A stretch of DNA of 43,868 bases, taken from positions 1-43,868 of the IMG/VR virus record IMGVR_UViG_3300032024_000167. One strand, 5' to 3'. The notes beneath the pieces are model-generated. The model worked only from the letters and a program-made list of their open reading frames with translations. It did not search any database and had not been told where the DNA came from. Shown here in pieces: positions 3,125 to 39,888 of this stretch. Source of the DNA: a virus (lineage: Duplodnaviria; Caudoviricetes). Each line of letters begins with the position of its first letter. Position 1 is the first letter of the stretch. A program made the translations under genes and the position numbers.

Positions 3125-3544
3125 TTAGGTAGGTTCGATGTAGAGCGGAGTCAGGCCCCAGCGGGTCGTCAGCCTGGCCCCGTTTGTGTAGTCGTAGTTC
3201 GGCCCGATCAGCCGCCTCATCGCCTTGCACTTCATGACCTCGACGGAATCCACTTGGTACAGGTGGTTGTAATTGGCGAAATAATCAACTCCGTCGTAAA
3301 CCAGTCTCATTGGCCCAGTGAACGGCAGCGCGTGATAGAGAGGGATGATCGCCATCGCAAACGCGTACGCCAAAAAGTCACCTTCGAGGATGACATCAAA
3401 CGGAAGACCACGTTTTCCGGTGTTCACCTTACCGACCACCGGACAGCCAACTCGCGTGACGGATTCGCCTTGGTACTGAACTAGCCTCGGCGGTGGTGAC
3501 CGCCAGAGCTGAAAGTCGTAAACGTCAATGTAGTGCGTCGCCAT
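3125..3544 (-). CDS. Putative distal tail protein (139 aa)
   Basis: Position just after the tape measure gene; abuts the upstream stop (TAAATG). Confidence 0.5.
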   Translation of the reverse strand: MATHYIDVYDFQLWRSPPPRLVQYQGESVTRVGCPVVGKVNTGKRGLPFDVILEGDFLAYAFAMAIIPLYHALPFTGPMRLVYDGVDYFANYNHLYQVDSVEVMKCKAMRRLIGPNYDYTNGARLTTRWGLTPLYIEPT

Positions 3545-31986: not shown

Positions 31987-32694
31987 TCACAGCTCATCGA
32001 GCATGTCGCTCTCGTCGTCCCCATCCTGGTCAGTGTCGTCGCTATCCTCATCGCTCTCATCGTCGAGTTGCTCGTCTTCTTGGTCTTGATCATCGCTGAC
32101 GACTTCACCGAATCGGTCGCGGTTCTCCGACAGCCACTCAAGTACTTGGTCCTCAATCTTGTCGACAGTCGCTTGGCCGAATCCGCGGATGCTTCCCAGG
32201 CCGTCACCGCCGCGCAGATCCTCGAGCTGTCCGATCGTGCGAACACCGGCTTCCTCGAGCCTCTCAAGCTGCTTGGCCGTCAGCGATAAGGCCTCGGCAA
32301 CCGGTGCGTTGCGCCAGGAGTTATCCGGCTGCGGGGCTGGCGGTGACTCCGCTTCGGCCTGGACAGGCTTCTCGCTGCTGGCGAACGGCAGCTTCTGTTG
32401 GAATTCGGGCCCGCGGGCGATCAGGTACGAAAGTCGCTTTCCAAGTTCGTCGACGAATTTCTTCTTCGCCGATGCGTCTGCCTTGGATGACTCGAACTCG
32501 CGCGTCGCCTCGATCAGCTCCCGGTTCAGCTCCCGGATCTCCTCGTAATGCTGCAACTCGATCGCGTGAACGGGACTGTCCTCCGCCGTCGTGGCTTCTG
32601 GCTGGCCGTCCACTGGGGTATCGGTGTCTTCCACTTCTGCCACTTCCGCCGTTTCTACTTCCGCTTCCGTCGCTTCCATTGTTTCCGTCGTCAT
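31987..32694 (-). CDS. Acidic protein with coiled coil and alpha-CTD/HhH-like domain (235 aa)
   Basis: LEEAGVRTIGQL...IRGFGQATVDKIE; very acidic termini. Confidence 0.7.
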   Translation of the reverse strand: MTTETMEATEAEVETAEVAEVEDTDTPVDGQPEATTAEDSPVHAIELQHYEEIRELNRELIEATREFESSKADASAKKKFVDELGKRLSYLIARGPEFQQKLPFASSEKPVQAEAESPPAPQPDNSWRNAPVAEALSLTAKQLERLEEAGVRTIGQLEDLRGGDGLGSIRGFGQATVDKIEDQVLEWLSENRDRFGEVVSDDQDQEDEQLDDESDEDSDDTDQDGDDESDMLDEL

Positions 32695-33863
32695 CGTGCG
32701 TCCTTTCTAAATCTGGGCCAGTAACTTCGCCGCGCGTTCGCGGCCGCATACGTCTTGCCGGTGCCGGGCCCGCCGCCGAATACTCCGATCACGCCCCGCA
32801 AAGCAACTGACAGCTGCTCCGCCTGGTGGGACGTGATGTTTTCGAGCGTCGCGGTATCCGGCCAGAAGGCCGGGTAGTTTTCCGAATCGACCAGGCGGCG
32901 GGCAATGTAGGATTCGTTCGCCGAGCATTTCCGCTCCGCCATCCAGATTGCCTCGCCCTTCTCCTCGATTCGGCCGCTGCGATCGGTCCGCAGGATATCG
33001 ATCATCCCCGACCGTTTGGCGAGACGGAGGGCGTCACCTGGTCGCTGGTTGCTGGCCGAGATCGAGCCGCGAACGGCGTTCACGCCGGTCGCAACCGGGT
33101 ACCAGGTGTGGCCGCTCGTGTCGCTCGCGATCGCATACCACGCGCACAACGCCTGCCGCTTCAGTCGATCGGGCCTGTGACCCAGGTCCAAATACATGGC
33201 GTCGGCGGTCTTGAAGCCGATCCCGCGGAACCGCATCAGGAGATACGGATTGCGGCGGATCATGTCGGTGGCCTGGTTTCCCCACAGAGCCAGAGCTTTC
33301 TTCGCTGTGGCCTTCGGCATGCCGCGGCGATCGAGCAACCCCATCAACTCAATCGAACAGTGCTCGATGTGAGCGCGTTCCCTAAGTCGTTCGGCGACCA
33401 GATGAGCCGACTCGATGCCGAGTCCCGTGATCGCGGCCGCCACGTCGTCCGGTTGCTCACGCACCATACGGACCGCATCACATCCCCACCGCTCCCAGAT
33501 CTTGGCGGCCCGCCCGATCCCGAGCCCATTGCCGCGCCCCGCCTCAGCCAGGTAGGCGACTATCCCCGACCTGGTCGCCGGTTCCGCCTCCACATACGTG
33601 GTGAAATGGAACTGCCGCTCACGGGTTCCGTTTCGCGGGTGGCTGTACATCTTCCATTGACCGAAGAACCGATAGGTTCCGGACTGTCGTAGCGGACGAG
33701 ATTCGTCGTCCGGTCCCTTCACGCCATAAGACATTCCAGGAGACAGATCTTCCGGCAATTCGCCGTCAACGTGTTCGGCGTTCCCGATAACGATGTCCCC
33801 ATCGCCATTGGGAAACCGAAACCGCTCGCCGCAGAACGTCGCCGTGATTTCGATTGCGGGCAT
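32691..33863 (-). CDS. Truncated RecD2/TraA-like helicase (N-terminal domains through Walker A only, 390 aa)
   Basis: GLGIGRAAKIW, IRRNPYLL...GIGFKTAD, SGHTW, GGPGTGKT, then a stop about 20 aa later. Confidence 0.8.
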   Translation of the reverse strand: MPAIEITATFCGERFRFPNGDGDIVIGNAEHVDGELPEDLSPGMSYGVKGPDDESRPLRQSGTYRFFGQWKMYSHPRNGTRERQFHFTTYVEAEPATRSGIVAYLAEAGRGNGLGIGRAAKIWERWGCDAVRMVREQPDDVAAAITGLGIESAHLVAERLRERAHIEHCSIELMGLLDRRGMPKATAKKALALWGNQATDMIRRNPYLLMRFRGIGFKTADAMYLDLGHRPDRLKRQALCAWYAIASDTSGHTWYPVATGVNAVRGSISASNQRPGDALRLAKRSGMIDILRTDRSGRIEEKGEAIWMAERKCSANESYIARRLVDSENYPAFWPDTATLENITSHQAEQLSVALRGVIGVFGGGPGTGKTYAAANARRSYWPRFRKDAR

Positions 33864-33966
33864 GATCGGCTCCGAGGGAAAACTCGCCGGCCGCTGTGCG
33901 ATCATATTCCGCAGAACACAGCAAGCCGGCGAGCCGAAGAAAGGCCACGCGCCTTTCGGAGAGGCG

Positions 33967-34587
33967 TCAGAGATTATCGAGGTCACCATCCGGCAGCTGC
34001 GGTTTGGACTTGCCGTTGCCACCGTTGGCCTTCGGTTCCTCATCTTGGAACGACTTCGGGTCCCGTCGATGTGCCGGCGGAATCAGAGCCAACGACTTCG
34101 GGCAACGCGGGAATGACGCACCGCGTGGATTGTCGATGTGCCAGATATCGGAAAAACTCAGCTCGACGCCCTTCTTGCCGTTGGGTAGTTCTTTTTCCTC
34201 CAGAACGGCGATAACCTGACGGCCTTCTGCGTCCTTCAACTCGATGTCGATTTCGGTCCCGAGCTGGGCCTCTGTCATCAAACCAGTGGCGATGAAGAAG
34301 GCAGCCTGTTTCTGACGATTAAACAGGCCTTCATTCTTCTGGCTGAGCTTCGGACCGAAGAAGATCAGGTCAGCAGTCCTGTCCCGCTCAGTGAAGTTGC
34401 CGTCAGCGTCCTTCACAGTGCCTTCCAACGCTTGGATCGTAACCTTGAAGCCGTCGATCGGCTTCTTGTCCTTCGTTATCGGAGTCTCGTCGGTGCCGGT
34501 CACAATCAAGTGATATGTGCCGGCCTTGTCCATCCAATTCCCACCACCGTGCGCCAGTGAATCTGGCGCTGAATACTTCATTCCCAT
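33967..34587 (-). CDS. Putative ssDNA-binding protein (DUF669-like, 206 aa)
   Basis: AGTYHLIV start motif, acidic tail DGDLDNL, directly downstream of the recombinase. Confidence 0.55.
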   Translation of the reverse strand: MGMKYSAPDSLAHGGGNWMDKAGTYHLIVTGTDETPITKDKKPIDGFKVTIQALEGTVKDADGNFTERDRTADLIFFGPKLSQKNEGLFNRQKQAAFFIATGLMTEAQLGTEIDIELKDAEGRQVIAVLEEKELPNGKKGVELSFSDIWHIDNPRGASFPRCPKSLALIPPAHRRDPKSFQDEEPKANGGNGKSKPQLPDGDLDNL

Positions 34588-34741: not shown

Positions 34742-36001
34742 TCAGGAACTCGAATCGGCCTGGTTCGTCGGATCGAAAGGGACGTCGTCTTTCGACTTCA
34801 GGCTCCGCGCGAAGAACAGTTCCAGGTTCTTCGTTTTCAATGCGGCATGCAGAGCCTCAACGTCCTCGTGGCAGAGATCCGAGAGTTTCGTCTTGCCGGC
34901 CTGCGTCAGATGTGCCTTGACACGTTTGACCAATTCGAAATCATTGGCCATCAGTGCCTTGCAGTCGTCGACCAATGTCTGGCCGACTTCGAAATCATTG
35001 GCCATCAGTGCCTTGCAGTCGTCGACCAATGTCTGGCCGACTGCGCCGGTTTTGTCTGCTGATCGCGTTTCGGCTGGGAGACGACTCTCACCGGCAACGT
35101 TAGTGGCGGCAGCATTGAGCTTTGTCTCAAGTGCCACGATCAGTTCGGCAGCCTGTTCGAACGTCAGCTGCATGACCGACTTGGCGCCACGCTTCGCCAG
35201 TGCCTTTTCACGCTGCTCCGGCGTCACGCCAACCGCTTCGAACAGGTCTCGGAGTCGGCTCCGCTGTTCAGTCGACGAGCCTTTCGGATCGTCAGACGCG
35301 GTCGGCTCAACCGTGCCCGGCTGAGTCTCGGCCGGCTTGTCATCGACCACCTTGAATTCGGCGTCGATCGGTTCGCTGTCGACTTGGTTGGTTGCCTGCT
35401 GTGTTGGCGCCGCCTCGATCTTAGCGGCTGTCGACCGCATCAATGTTTCGACGTCCACCGGCTTGGTCGCTACCGGCTCGTCAGCCAGGTCGCCAATTTC
35501 TTCGGGGGTGTAGACACCAGCTACGACCTCGGGACATATGGTGCGGACGGCCTCGCTGCACACGCGCGCCCAGAGCATTTGACGCCTGGCTCTGGGTGTC
35601 GCCCAGTTTGTCTTGTGGGTCTTCCCGTCCTTCTTGTATACGAATGGTTCCTTCTGAGCCTCTTCCCAGGTGAGCGATTCGATGTGCGTGTTGCCATCGA
35701 ATTCCACTTCAATCGACGCGACATCGGGCGTTCGCGATTTCACCTTGTGTTTTCCACCACGACGACGGAAATCAGCCAGCATCGCGTCGGCCCGCATCGA
35801 CAGCTGACCGTCCATGATGTGGTAGGTCCGTTTGACGGCCAGCGGTGTCTGACGCTCGCACAGGCAGGCCATCGCAAGGACCTGGCCTTGCGATTCGTTC
35901 TCGCAACCGAACAACCGCGACTTTGCCATGGCCGCGCCGAACTCCCTGACGAATGCCATTGGATCCGCGACGTTGCCATAAATGCTTAAATCTGTGCTCA
36001 T
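34742..36001 (-). CDS. RecT/Redbeta-family single-strand annealing protein with long C-terminal extension
   Basis: NW...RQMLWAR..SEAVRTICPEVVAGVYTPEE motif. Confidence 0.75.
   Translation of the reverse strand: MSTDLSIYGNVADPMAFVREFGAAMAKSRLFGCENESQGQVLAMACLCERQTPLAVKRTYHIMDGQLSMRADAMLADFRRRGGKHKVKSRTPDVASIEVEFDGNTHIESLTWEEAQKEPFVYKKDGKTHKTNWATPRARRQMLWARVCSEAVRTICPEVVAGVYTPEEIGDLADEPVATKPVDVETLMRSTAAKIEAAPTQQATNQVDSEPIDAEFKVVDDKPAETQPGTVEPTASDDPKGSSTEQRSRLRDLFEAVGVTPEQREKALAKRGAKSVMQLTFEQAAELIVALETKLNAAATNVAGESRLPAETRSADKTGAVGQTLVDDCKALMANDFEVGQTLVDDCKALMANDFELVKRVKAHLTQAGKTKLSDLCHEDVEALHAALKTKNLELFFARSLKSKDDVPFDPTNQADSSS
34934..35042. repeat. Perfect in-frame 54-bp tandem duplication
   Basis: 34934-34987 equals 34988-35041; encodes VGQTLVDDCKALMANDFE twice. 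Confidence 0.95.
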
Positions 36002-36183: not shown

Positions 36184-36431
36184 GATCCGGTCTCAATCTC
36201 GCTTTCGACCTCAACTGCCGCGTTGTCCATGTAGTCGAGGACGTCTTCCATCGTCTGCTTGGTCGCGGTTCGGATGATCGGGTTTCCCGGCTGGTCCAGC
36301 TCGAGAACGTGCTCGCCCGTGTCTTGGTCGATGTAGTACCGCATGGTCGACTCCGTTCGTTTTGAAAACATGCCGGAGAACAGGCTCCGGCTTTCGGCCT
36401 CAGCGGCAACGCGTTCTGGCTTGATCCTCAA
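36180..36431 (-). CDS. Hypothetical protein
   Basis: Stop overlaps the next start; start uncertain. Confidence 0.5.
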   Translation of the reverse strand: MRIKPERVAAEAESRSLFSGMFSKRTESTMRYYIDQDTGEHVLELDQPGNPIIRTATKQTMEDVLDYMDNAAVEVESEIETGS

Positions 36432-36570
36432 TTTGGTTTCCGTCCTGCCACGGCTTACGTCGGTCGAGGATCGCTCACACCCGACGCGCCAAACCCATCA
36501 GCAATCGCATTGCCTTGCCCGGCCGGAACGAATCACCGACGCCGGACTTCATCACAGGTAGGGTATTCCG

Positions 36571-36780
36571 TTACTGGCGAAGCTCACGCACCAAGACCTG
36601 CTGCGTGGTGTGCAGCAAGAGTTCCTTGCTTTCGCCACTGCCATCTGGTCCGCCTTTCAGTTCCACCTCAGGCATTCCACCGCAGACGACTCCAGCGGAA
36701 TCCGTATGCTGGACCGTCACGCCAATCACCGCAGACTCACGGCTGTCGTCGTTCTTTACCGTCACATGAATCGACATCAC
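36571..36780 (-). CDS. Hypothetical protein (69 aa)
   Basis: SD AAGGAG. Confidence 0.6.
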   Translation of the reverse strand: MMSIHVTVKNDDSRESAVIGVTVQHTDSAGVVCGGMPEVELKGGPDGSGESKELLLHTTQQVLVRELRQ

Positions 36781-36812
36781 TCACTCCTTTTCCATTGAAC
36801 CACCATGAACAG

Positions 36813-36881
36813 TTGCGGGCCGTGGAATCGAACCACGCCTGCCAGGCTTATGAGACCCGGCCGGGTTCCAGCCCGCCCGCA
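36813..36881 (-). tRNA. tRNA-like element, anticodon CAT (Met/Ile2), shortened D-arm, no encoded CCA
   Basis: Acceptor TGCGGGC/GCCCGCA+A; anticodon arm CGGGT-CTCATAA-GCCTG; T-arm CGTGG-TTCGATT-CCACG; only 15 nt between acceptor and anticodon stems. Confidence 0.7.
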
Positions 36882-36887
36882 AGTCAA

Positions 36888-37067
36888 TCATGCTGCATCG
36901 CGTTGCTTTCCGCCGTCGCGATCAACCAACTCGCCTCGTACGATCCGCACTTCGCTGGGGGCCTCGATGCCGATCGACACCACGCTCCCACGTATGCGAT
37001 TAACGACGATCACAATGTCTTTGCCGATCCGAATCCGTTCCTTCGCTTTTCTGCTTAGCACCAACAT
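36888..37067 (-). CDS. csrA: Carbon storage regulator CsrA/RsmA (59 aa)
   Basis: MLVLSRK..ERIRIGKDI...VSIGIEAPSEVRIVRGEL is the canonical CsrA pattern including the R-x-E motif. Confidence 0.93.
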   Translation of the reverse strand: MLVLSRKAKERIRIGKDIVIVVNRIRGSVVSIGIEAPSEVRIVRGELVDRDGGKQRDAA

Positions 37068-37219
37068 GGTTTCCATTCCTTTGTTGCTGGTTGTCCTCGG
37101 TCGCGTCCACATCGTGCGTTCGCGGCCGTCGTCTCCTGTCCATCACTTCCTGTGATGAAGCGTCATGCTTTCCGTTTCCTTGCAGCTCCGTGCTGCTAAG
37201 ACCGCCAAATCTCCTGGCG
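37068..37219 (-). ncRNA. GGA-rich CsrB/RsmZ-like RNA or csrA leader
   Basis: 11 GGA in 152 nt; hairpins CGCCA-GGAGATT-TGGCG, GCAGC-ACGGA-GCTGC and CATCAC-AGGAA-GTGATG. Confidence 0.7.
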
Positions 37220-37471
37220 TTACTCATAGGCAGCAATCGCGGCATCCACGTCCGCGTCAATTGAGTCCGGATCAATGTCAGGTGCTTCGAACTCCCAGGA
37301 GTACACGCCTTCCTGTCTCTCTCCAGCGATTTCCGCGTTATTGCGAACGTACTTCCACCGTGCGGCGTCGGCCTTAATGCGATGCAGTCCGTTACTGCAC
37401 GCAATGACCGTCGCGACCCACCCCACAACGAAGCCGACGTAGAACGCAACGCTGACGTAGAGAAGAGTCAT
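37220..37471 (-). CDS. Hypothetical membrane-anchored protein, paralog of 28501..28746
   Basis: N-terminal hydrophobic helix plus the shared C-terminal domain. Confidence 0.75.
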   Translation of the reverse strand: MTLLYVSVAFYVGFVVGWVATVIACSNGLHRIKADAARWKYVRNNAEIAGERQEGVYSWEFEAPDIDPDSIDADVDAAIAAYE

Positions 37472-38364: not shown

Positions 38365-38393
38365 AATGTACCGAATACGGTACAGCGTGTCAA
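38365..38393 (-). promoter_or_regulatory. Sigma70-type early promoter with overlapping palindromic operator
   Basis: TTGACA-17 nt-TACATT; operator TGTACCG-N4-CGGTACA at 38367-38384. Confidence 0.8.
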
Positions 38394-38641
38394 CGTCCTG
38401 TTCGGATTTTTTTAGGGTCTTCCAAAAACGAGTCGATTGTGACCCCGAACGCCTCGGCGATCCGTGCAAGCAACGCAACGCCCGGCAAGTTCTTTCCGTT
38501 CAAGATGTTAGATAGCGTCATGGGTGGGTCGCCTGTCTTTCGTGCGACCTCCCGCAAGGACATACCGCTACCGTCCAAATGATTGCGGAAGTTCTCCGCA
38601 ACATTCTCCATTGCTTTCTGATTGCTGATCACTGTTGACAT
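38390..38641 (-). CDS. XRE-family HTH repressor (83 aa)
   Basis: GMSLREVARKTG...TLSNILNGKNLP...LARIAEAFGVTIDSF. Confidence 0.9.
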   Translation of the reverse strand: MSTVISNQKAMENVAENFRNHLDGSGMSLREVARKTGDPPMTLSNILNGKNLPGVALLARIAEAFGVTIDSFLEDPKKIRTGR

Positions 38642-39718: not shown

Positions 39719-39750
39719 GTTTGAGCCCTCCCTTAAAACCGTACAAACCA

Positions 39751-39806
39751 GTGCGGGAAACAGGACTTGAACCTGCATGGCCAGTTACGGCCACTAGGCC
39801 CTCAAC
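39751..39806 (-). other. attP core: 3' half of tRNA-Leu(GAG)
   Basis: TT-GAG-GG-CCTAG, long variable arm TGGCC-GTAACT-GGCCA, T-arm GCAGG-TTCAAGT-CCTGT, acceptor TTCCCGC-A; 5' half absent; adjacent to the integrase. Confidence 0.85.
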
Positions 39807-39888
39807 GAGAAATGCCAGCCCGTCCCTAGGATCGGTGGAAAATTTCCGCACGGTAGCGCAGGAGTGAGCTAGTTTTTCCTCATCGTGC

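Follow-up and report, generated by a model that had tools for sequence, protein, structure and literature searches.

Immediately upstream of a csrA gene on the minus strand of the viral genome IMGVR_UViG_3300032024_000167, we identified a GGA-rich element whose core is, on comparison with the sequences of relatives, a real, conserved and lineage-restricted non-coding element (Table 1). The element has the appearance of an RNA that binds CsrA and is found repeatedly next to csrA genes of phages, and based on our analysis it probably works in the manner of an mRNA-borne sponge. All positions refer to the window, that is, the whole stretch of DNA analysed (43,868 nt).

Genome context and the csrA gene product

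The phage is temperate. Its genome was circularly assembled at 43.9 kb with a terminal repeat of 55 nt, and its gene set includes an integrase, an HTH repressor, a RecT-like protein, primase, terminase, portal and major head proteins. The early region is read from the minus strand in the order HTH gene, sigma70-like promoter candidate, two unknown ORFs, the 152-nt gap that holds the GGA array, csrA, tRNA, small ORFs and recombination genes. The promoter candidate is weak, as the search for sigma70-like promoters returned one where 1.3 were expected by chance. With the sigma70 consensus as the only promoter model, no promoter or terminator bounding the array was found in this genome.

The csrA product also matches phrog_9500 and RsmE (2jpp, E 1.9e-7), and its clade comprises 14 close proteins (alignment A2). 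The nearest named homologues belong to Pirellulales and other Planctomycetota, so the host is probably a planctomycete. Arg44 is retained in this protein and invariant in alignments A1 and A2; in the available text of PMC4005645 this residue is an RNA contact of CsrA/RsmA, and the core bases of the RsmE site are described as irreplaceable. Residue 43 is a valine, and several homologues in A1 carry a histidine. One planctomycete genome (G001) yielded six CsrA matches; csrA is common in Planctomycetota (PMC13443453, accessible portion). The same portion reports that RNA specificity differs among CsrA homologues and that two of them tolerate a change of GGA to GAA. An altered specificity is thus possible; such tolerance does not cover loss of the first G.

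Several features elsewhere in the genome were also recorded. In the RecT-like protein (34742–36001, minus strand), 18 residues close to the C-terminus are repeated exactly in tandem, a duplication that is either real or an assembly artefact. The RecD2-like ORF (32691–34043, minus strand) stops soon after a Walker A-like motif and may be truncated or frameshifted; the syntenic ORF in locus L129 has 798 aa. Just before the integrase start, at about 39750–39825 (minus strand), lies a tRNA-like sequence with a long extra arm that ARAGORN did not call; its similarity to a tRNA-like part of L071 is 75% (E 5.8e-4), and it is possibly an attP-linked tRNA remnant. A second conserved non-coding block (36372–36567, minus strand) is better conserved than the surrounding genes, with 11 differences in 196 positions in relative X3, and is covered in X6 and X10 too. 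In both X3 and X10 one of its small hairpins is closed by a compensatory change (36450/36443), and a terminator-like hairpin (36391–36372) marks the end of the block; its overall fold gives a z of only −0.59. It had no Rfam match, nor any match in the cultured-phage collection (query 36345–36570), and is a candidate new structured RNA.

Composition and predicted fold of the array

The gap upstream of csrA (37068–37219, minus strand) contains 11 GGA trinucleotides, nine of them in the form ANGGA or CAGGA, which confirms the counts given in the initial annotation; the plus strand contains none. That annotation had put the chance expectation at two to three, which is too low: the minus strand averages 3.46 GGA per 152 nt, and dinucleotide shuffles of the gap give 5.7. 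The excess still stands, with at least 11 GGA in 6 of 5000 shuffles and at least nine ANGGA/CAGGA in 1 of 5000. Raw counts of 11–12 GGA are reached at two other minus-strand places in the genome. Nine ANGGA/CAGGA per 152 nt is the maximum over both strands of the whole genome, and the next place has six.

The predicted fold of the gap has an energy of −46.4 kcal/mol (z −3.40), a value equalled by none of 200 shuffles, and the segment 37098–37200 gives a z of −3.14. Three hairpins with GGA in their loops had been proposed from the letters, and all three are predicted; complete unpairing (P = 1.00) is restricted to the GGAs at 37189 and 37150, which lie cleanly in predicted loops, whereas the first G of the GGA at 37214 is mostly paired (P unpaired 0.14). 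The first G is likewise mostly paired at 37141 and 37108, and at three further GGA sites outside the ribosome-binding site every base is unpaired with a probability above 0.5 in the predicted fold. An Rfam search of the gap returned no family at the gathering score and no Csr/Rsm match up to E 10.

The ribosome-binding region of csrA itself holds two GGAs. At least two GGA within 25 nt of the start occur in 20 of the 55 predicted genes, and a double GGA at this position therefore carries no evidential weight.

Table 1. Features of the array and its neighbourhood; all lie on the minus strand.
Feature	Position	Strand	Basis or remark
HTH repressor-like gene heading the early region	38390–38641	−	PF01381
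sigma70-like promoter candidate of the early operon	38365–38393	−	10/12 match; about 1.15 kb upstream
5' hairpin specific to this genome, GGA partly in the loop	37203–37219	−	Predicted fold
Conserved core, structured GGA-rich RNA	37102–37198	−	Retained in X3, X6 and X10, where the flanks differ
Hairpin with ACGGA pentaloop, canonical CsrA-type site	37182–37196	−	P(unpaired) 1.00
Two mostly single-stranded sites, AAGGA and ACGGA	37170–37181	−	GGA unchanged among the listed changes in 3/3 relatives
Short hairpin with ATGAC loop (ANGAN class)	37158–37170	−	MFE and centroid structures
Hairpin with loop AGGAA in this genome	37140–37158	−	Covarying stem
Linker ACAGGAGA, CsrB-type CAGGA site	37132–37139	−	Without listed change in 3/3 relatives
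Long interrupted hairpin, apical ACGAT readable as a third ANGAN loop	37098–37128	−	MFE
csrA ribosome-binding region with AAGGA and ATGGA	37068–37097	−	Leader similar in L030
csrA, 59 aa	36888–37067	−	PF02599, 67.6 bits against a cutoff of 27, E 9e-19
Phage-type tRNA-Met(CAU), short D arm, no encoded CCA	36812–36881	−	ARAGORN tRNA-Met(CAT)

Conservation in close relatives

Relatives were DNA contigs of runs X3, X6 and X10, which come from three studies. Five runs were compared in total, and the array was uncovered in the other two: cover in X12 is limited to 36198–36347 and X11 has none at the array, so neither shows absence. The 97-nt core persists in contigs of three of the five runs with its flanks swapped. 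On the 5' side a different flank begins at 37212 in X3 and X6 and at 37199 in X10; the hairpin at 37203–37219 is therefore not conserved (0/3). On the 46-kb X3 contig the array, csrA and tRNA are contiguous, and the array differs at 15 of 132 positions, as against 51 of 267 for csrA plus tRNA and 24 of 144 for the upstream gene.

The three parts do not form the fixed cassette that had been proposed. The array is followed by other sequence in X6 and X10, where a hairpin and T-run can be made out by eye from 30-nt loose ends, followed in X6 by a ribosome-binding site (also by eye). The csrA of locus L030 and of another X6 contig lies behind a different gene, with a leader of about 45 nt that lacks the array; in L030 the tRNA still sits 6 nt past the csrA stop. 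Because the array is kept where csrA is displaced, it is a module of its own and not merely a csrA leader. As a separate observation, positions 1–80 of L030 hold a Gly-Tyr repeat ORF that ends about 45 nt before csrA, and the same flank is present on the X6 contig.

Within the core, one stem covaries. In X6 the stem at 37140–37158 shows three compensatory pairs (37158/37140, 37156/37142 and 37153/37145; rough chance 0.004) together with one broken pair, and in X3 it shows one wobble change. This covariation rests on one X6 contig of depth 5.2. The X10 contig has a depth of 4.9, and its five listed changes are all shared with X3. Elsewhere, position 37117 changes a G.U to an A-U pair in X3 and X6, and the pair 37121/37105 is broken or shifted in X3, X6 and X10. 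None of the changes listed for the three relatives affects the stem or the loop of the canonical ACGGA hairpin (37182–37196), though it lies near the end of the X10 piece; being invariant among the listed changes, it provides no covariation. The one stem that covaries loses the GGA of its loop in two of the three relatives: the loop is AGGAA in this genome and X10 but ATGAA and ACGAC in X3 and X6, respectively.

As changes near the ends of aligned pieces are unlisted, these comparisons cover 9 of 15 changes in X3, 15 of 18 in X6 and 5 of 6 in X10. Among them, no change touches the GGAs at 37189, 37179, 37173 and 37136; the GGA at 37141 is lost in X6. The two mostly single-stranded sites at 37170–37181 carry one flanking change and a 1-nt deletion (37175) in X6. 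In the short hairpin at 37158–37170 only the last loop base varies in X6, besides 37158, which is shared with the next stem. In all three C-closed pentaloops the listed loop changes fall only on the N positions of A-N-G-A-N. The GGA bases occupy 21 of the 97 core positions and account for 2 of the 18 variable sites, and they are not significantly more conserved than the rest of the core (P = 0.19).

An open frame of 75 codons (37000–37227) crosses the gap, and 6 of the 9 listed X3 changes fall at its third positions. The changed codons are nonetheless mostly non-synonymous (4 of 6 in X3, 2 of 2 in X10), X6 carries a 1-nt deletion, in X3 and X6 its start has given way to a flank that contains in-frame stops (by eye), and no PHROG match was found. 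The non-synonymous changes and the deletion led us to reject coding. Overall, the cognate multi-site RNA that had been put forward is supported in part: the RNA is conserved in relatives and predicted to be structured, four ANGGA-type sites are free of listed change, and coding is rejected. The outermost hairpin is kept in none of the three relatives.

The adjoining tRNA-Met

A tRNA-like element 6 nt after the csrA stop had been noted from the letters and is present. It is called by ARAGORN and has no RF00005 match in Rfam, the best match being tRNA-Sec at 21.4 bits (E 0.22), below the cutoffs. In an alignment of 10 hand-picked sequences its acceptor, anticodon and T stems covary, with 97.1% of cells paired and 28 both-side changes (0/500 shuffles). 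A pattern built on this tRNA detected 119 viral loci in 38 of 64 IMG/VR parts, mostly ordinary-looking tRNA-Met(CAU). The phage tRNA-Met(CAU) of Arthrobacter phage Talia1610 and of these loci shares its acceptor stem, anticodon loop, T-arm pattern and covarying stems, whereas in the present copy the D arm is short, CCA is not encoded and the score falls below the Rfam tRNA cutoff. A subgroup with the same shortened D arm (L165, L202, L221, L230, L232, L238, L247, L255 and L260) has no csrA in the flanks examined.

Only 1 of the 119 loci, 80 of which have long flanks, has csrA nearby, and the tRNA was rejected as a csrA-specific part. ARAGORN found no tRNA near csrA in L006, L276 and L322, the three distant loci described below; an unrelated call lies 1.4 kb away on the L322 contig. 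In L001 a different, degenerate tRNA-like element (3171–3242) lies closely 3' of another phage csrA.

RNase P cleaves at the 5' end of a tRNA. Such a cut would end the csrA message and leave the array joined to csrA. The suggestion that tRNA processing releases the cassette is accordingly unsupported, since the cut falls downstream of csrA and the tRNA is of a widespread phage type.

Distant phages

A pattern scan for csrA in 14 of 64 IMG/VR parts gave 119 loci, of which 112 were confirmed as csrA and 108 were distinct with enough upstream DNA. None of the 108 combines at least seven ANGGA/CAGGA with at least three GGA in loops, as this genome does, and their upstream counts resemble those of background windows. 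The array is thus not a general companion of phage csrA, yet some lineages carry one, L006, L276 and L322 among them. L006, the only locus to stand out among 126 earlier ones, has eight ANGGA/CAGGA in its spacer before csrA, four of them in possible loops (z −4.2). The corresponding spacers of L322 and L276 contain seven (z −4.4) and five (z −1.3), respectively. L134, whose RecT-like gene is 32% identical, has the same tRNA type, a spacer with seven GGA (z −3.3) and csrA, and is a weaker case. On one viral contig (G005) two csrA genes (L006/L131 and L137) lie 3.5 kb apart, the first with an ACGGA array.

Both L276 and L322 have a hairpin with an ACGAA loop, then ACAGGA and then a long GGA-bearing hairpin, 71–73 nt before csrA; ACAGGA is likewise the counterpart of the linker 3' of the equivalent hairpin here. 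In L322 the last long hairpin ends in a T-run, and in L276 a strong terminator precedes the array directly. About 170–290 nt upstream of the L276 csrA we observed by eye a promoter-like sequence, some 110 nt with three ANGGA and a strong hairpin with a T-run; this stretch, directly before the array, may represent a separate short GGA RNA.

The hairpin-plus-ACAGGA motif, as read from X6, had two matches in 2.78 Mb (L276 and L322), both before csrA, in a search that was not blind. A fresh IMG/VR scan gave 25 matches, 23 of which have no csrA nearby, the other two being the contigs that define the pattern. In genomes, all 30 matches examined lacked a nearby csrA, and the 31 matches found compare with about 19 for a reversed control. 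A covariance model built on three sequences (R1) recovered nothing beyond its own members in 85 + 80 sources and had no hit in 150 genomes. As the blind pattern scan and the model added no member, homology of the L276/L322 RNA to the array of this phage is plausible and unconfirmed. A four-way MAFFT alignment of the whole leaders was poor. AYGAN hairpins precede 5 of 128 viral csrA genes, the comparison figure being 11 of 1309 (P = 0.01, a post hoc choice from 13 patterns).

Exact pattern searches of IMG/VR, for the ACGGA hairpin together with AGGAA and separately for the tRNA arm of this genome, gave no match, in records that possibly hold no very near relatives. Protein-seeded scans returned almost exclusively distant csrA genes, L030 being the single close-clade locus. 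In the cultured-phage collection the array was unmatched and csrA had one weak match. BLAST of 36360–37225 against 401 genomes of one planctomycete order matched essentially csrA and tRNA only and left the array core uncovered.

Proposed function and alternatives

Based on these observations, we tentatively favour, as something close to an even call, the explanation that the array is a co-transcribed CsrA-binding buffer and feedback leader. From sequence, conservation, the covariation of one stem and synteny, we infer its transcription, folding in vivo, CsrA binding, titration and feedback as follows. The core would be an early-region non-coding module with the predicted hairpins, likely transcribed within the early message, and CsrA dimers would likely be bound at four to five of its A(N)GGA sites. 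Every early transcript would then come with a capacity to bind CsrA, placed before the csrA gene; by absorbing the first CsrA made by the phage (and the host), the array would set a threshold before early genes are repressed. In this genome the array abuts the csrA ribosome-binding site and may help CsrA to repress its own translation. In relatives with a hairpin and U-run after the array, termination would free a short sponge. The tRNA-Met would be an optional neighbour.

In favour of the CsrA-binding buffer are the genome-top density of ANGGA/CAGGA, a core kept while its flanks were exchanged, one covarying stem, four unchanged GGAs, the lack of support for coding, structured GGA spacers before csrA elsewhere, a CsrA with Arg44 and the X6-derived motif, both 2.78-Mb matches of which precede csrA (not blind). 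Precedents, as described in the parts of the papers available, include RsmE, which recognises A(N)GGAX in single-stranded stretches as well as in loops, upstream sites that can recruit a dimer to a ribosome-binding site (PMC4005645), and mRNA leaders that can titrate CsrA, namely Salmonella fim and Campylobacter flaA (PMC4894983, PMC13501541). Against it stand the non-significant GGA conservation (P = 0.19) and a covarying loop that loses its GGA, core bases being irreplaceable in RsmE sites (PMC4005645, same portion). The 0/108 count, a covariance model without new members, no bounding promoter or terminator, a covariation signal from one contig of depth 5.2 and a GGA recognition by planctomycete-type CsrA that is only presumed also weigh against it.

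The main competing explanation, somewhat unlikely in our estimation, holds that the element is a cis-acting antitermination or attenuation signal of the early operon, recognised through its repeated C-ANGAN-G hairpins by some factor that is not CsrA, the GGAs being secondary. The lambda nut and HK022 put sites are models for such a signal. The restriction of listed changes in the three C-ANGAN-G loops to N positions fits this explanation, as do the persistence of the element in the early region when csrA is displaced, the hairpin and T-run after it in L322 (and, by eye, in X6 and X10) and the strong terminator just before it in L276. It leaves unexplained, however, the four unchanged ANGGA sites, the perfect ACGGA loop and the position of the L276 and L322 motif within 75 nt of csrA. 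The AYGAN enrichment before viral csrA is weak, and no N-like protein is among the identified genes.

A more elaborate form of CsrA binding, which we regard as unlikely, is a self-contained Csr circuit in which the A(N)GGA loops would trap host CsrA and the C-ANGAN-G pentaloops would be recognised by a phage CsrA whose specificity has shifted. If true, one RNA would disarm host translational control and set the threshold of the phage repressor in the lysis-lysogeny decision.

That the array acts mainly as a free small RNA of the CsrB/RsmZ type, released from the transcript by cutting or by termination so as to sequester host CsrA, seems quite unlikely. Its size of about 100 nt and sharp borders, the terminator-like 3' flanks in L322, X6 and X10, and the several CsrA of planctomycete hosts (six matches in G001) would suit such an RNA; here, however, no terminator follows the array and no promoter directly precedes it, tRNA processing would cut downstream of csrA and not between array and csrA, and Rfam gave no Csr/Rsm match.

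An autoregulatory 5' leader of csrA only, with upstream sites recruiting the dimer to the Shine-Dalgarno sequence, is decidedly improbable. The array does lie directly upstream of csrA here and in X3, L006, L276 and L322, two GGAs overlap the ribosome-binding site, and recruitment of CsrA by upstream sites is described in the available part of PMC4005645. This explanation fails to account for conservation of the array in X6 and X10 with other sequence on its 3' side, and for same-clade csrA genes (L030 and X6) whose short leader lacks it. Finally, a chance purine-rich spacer or unannotated small ORF is very improbable and largely refuted, for the open frame, its third-position changes and the raw GGA counts reached elsewhere in the genome are outweighed by the non-synonymous changes, the X6 frameshift, the replaced start, the missing PHROG match and the covarying stem.

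Comparison with known systems

Phage csrA is already known: in the available portion of PMC7366521 it is counted in 30 of 2517 phages, and knockdown of the phage CsrA homologue PTXU04_00028 shrinks plaques (PMC11879866, in part). Other mobile elements likewise encode their own CsrA homologue, as with plasmid RsmQ, which binds host RsmY/RsmZ stem-loops (PMC9928087), and LvrC, encoded by Legionella p45 (PMC6597080). None of these is described with an element-encoded cognate RNA in the available parts of the four sources (PMC7366521, PMC11879866, PMC9928087, PMC6597080). The initial annotation knew of no described phage sponge-plus-CsrA cassette, and a literature search confined mostly to open papers, themselves available in part, found neither such a cassette nor a phage-encoded CsrA-sequestering RNA; catalogues of viral structured RNAs may hold the motif. 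Two candidate precedents were set aside on the parts available: the csrA-tldR loci (bioRxiv 2025.07.22.666180) are chromosomal and not phage-borne, and the phiKZ ncRNAs (PMC8545117) have no CsrA link.

The array resembles the CsrB/CsrC and RsmX/RsmY/RsmZ sponges, as portrayed in the accessible text of PMC7366521 and PMC4005645, in its length (about 100–150 nt), non-coding nature and A(N)GGA motifs in C-G-closed hairpin loops and linkers. In contrast to these, it is phage-borne, adjoins csrA, has ANGAN loops interspersed and only two clean GGA loops, one of them not conserved. Membership of the CsrB/RsmZ family fails on two tests, as the array has no Rfam match and no stand-alone promoter and terminator in this genome. 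The leaders of Salmonella fimAICDHF and Campylobacter flaA (PMC4894983, PMC13501541, in the parts available) are also multi-site GGA regions of an mRNA, each a possible titrator as well as a CsrA target; here the message would also encode CsrA, the region is viral and lies between operon genes, and titration is our own proposal.

How phage csrA genes are controlled is an open question in the available text of PMC7366521 and PMC11879866, and the sponge RNAs covered in the available review text are gammaproteobacterial. A phage CsrA-binding RNA beside csrA would be the antagonist that has been missing, and it would widen Csr sponging to include viruses and also Planctomycetota. The loops AGGAA, ATGAA and ACGAC, natural variants on one stem, would lend themselves to testing the specificity of CsrA, with a protein of 59 aa and an RNA of 100 nt.
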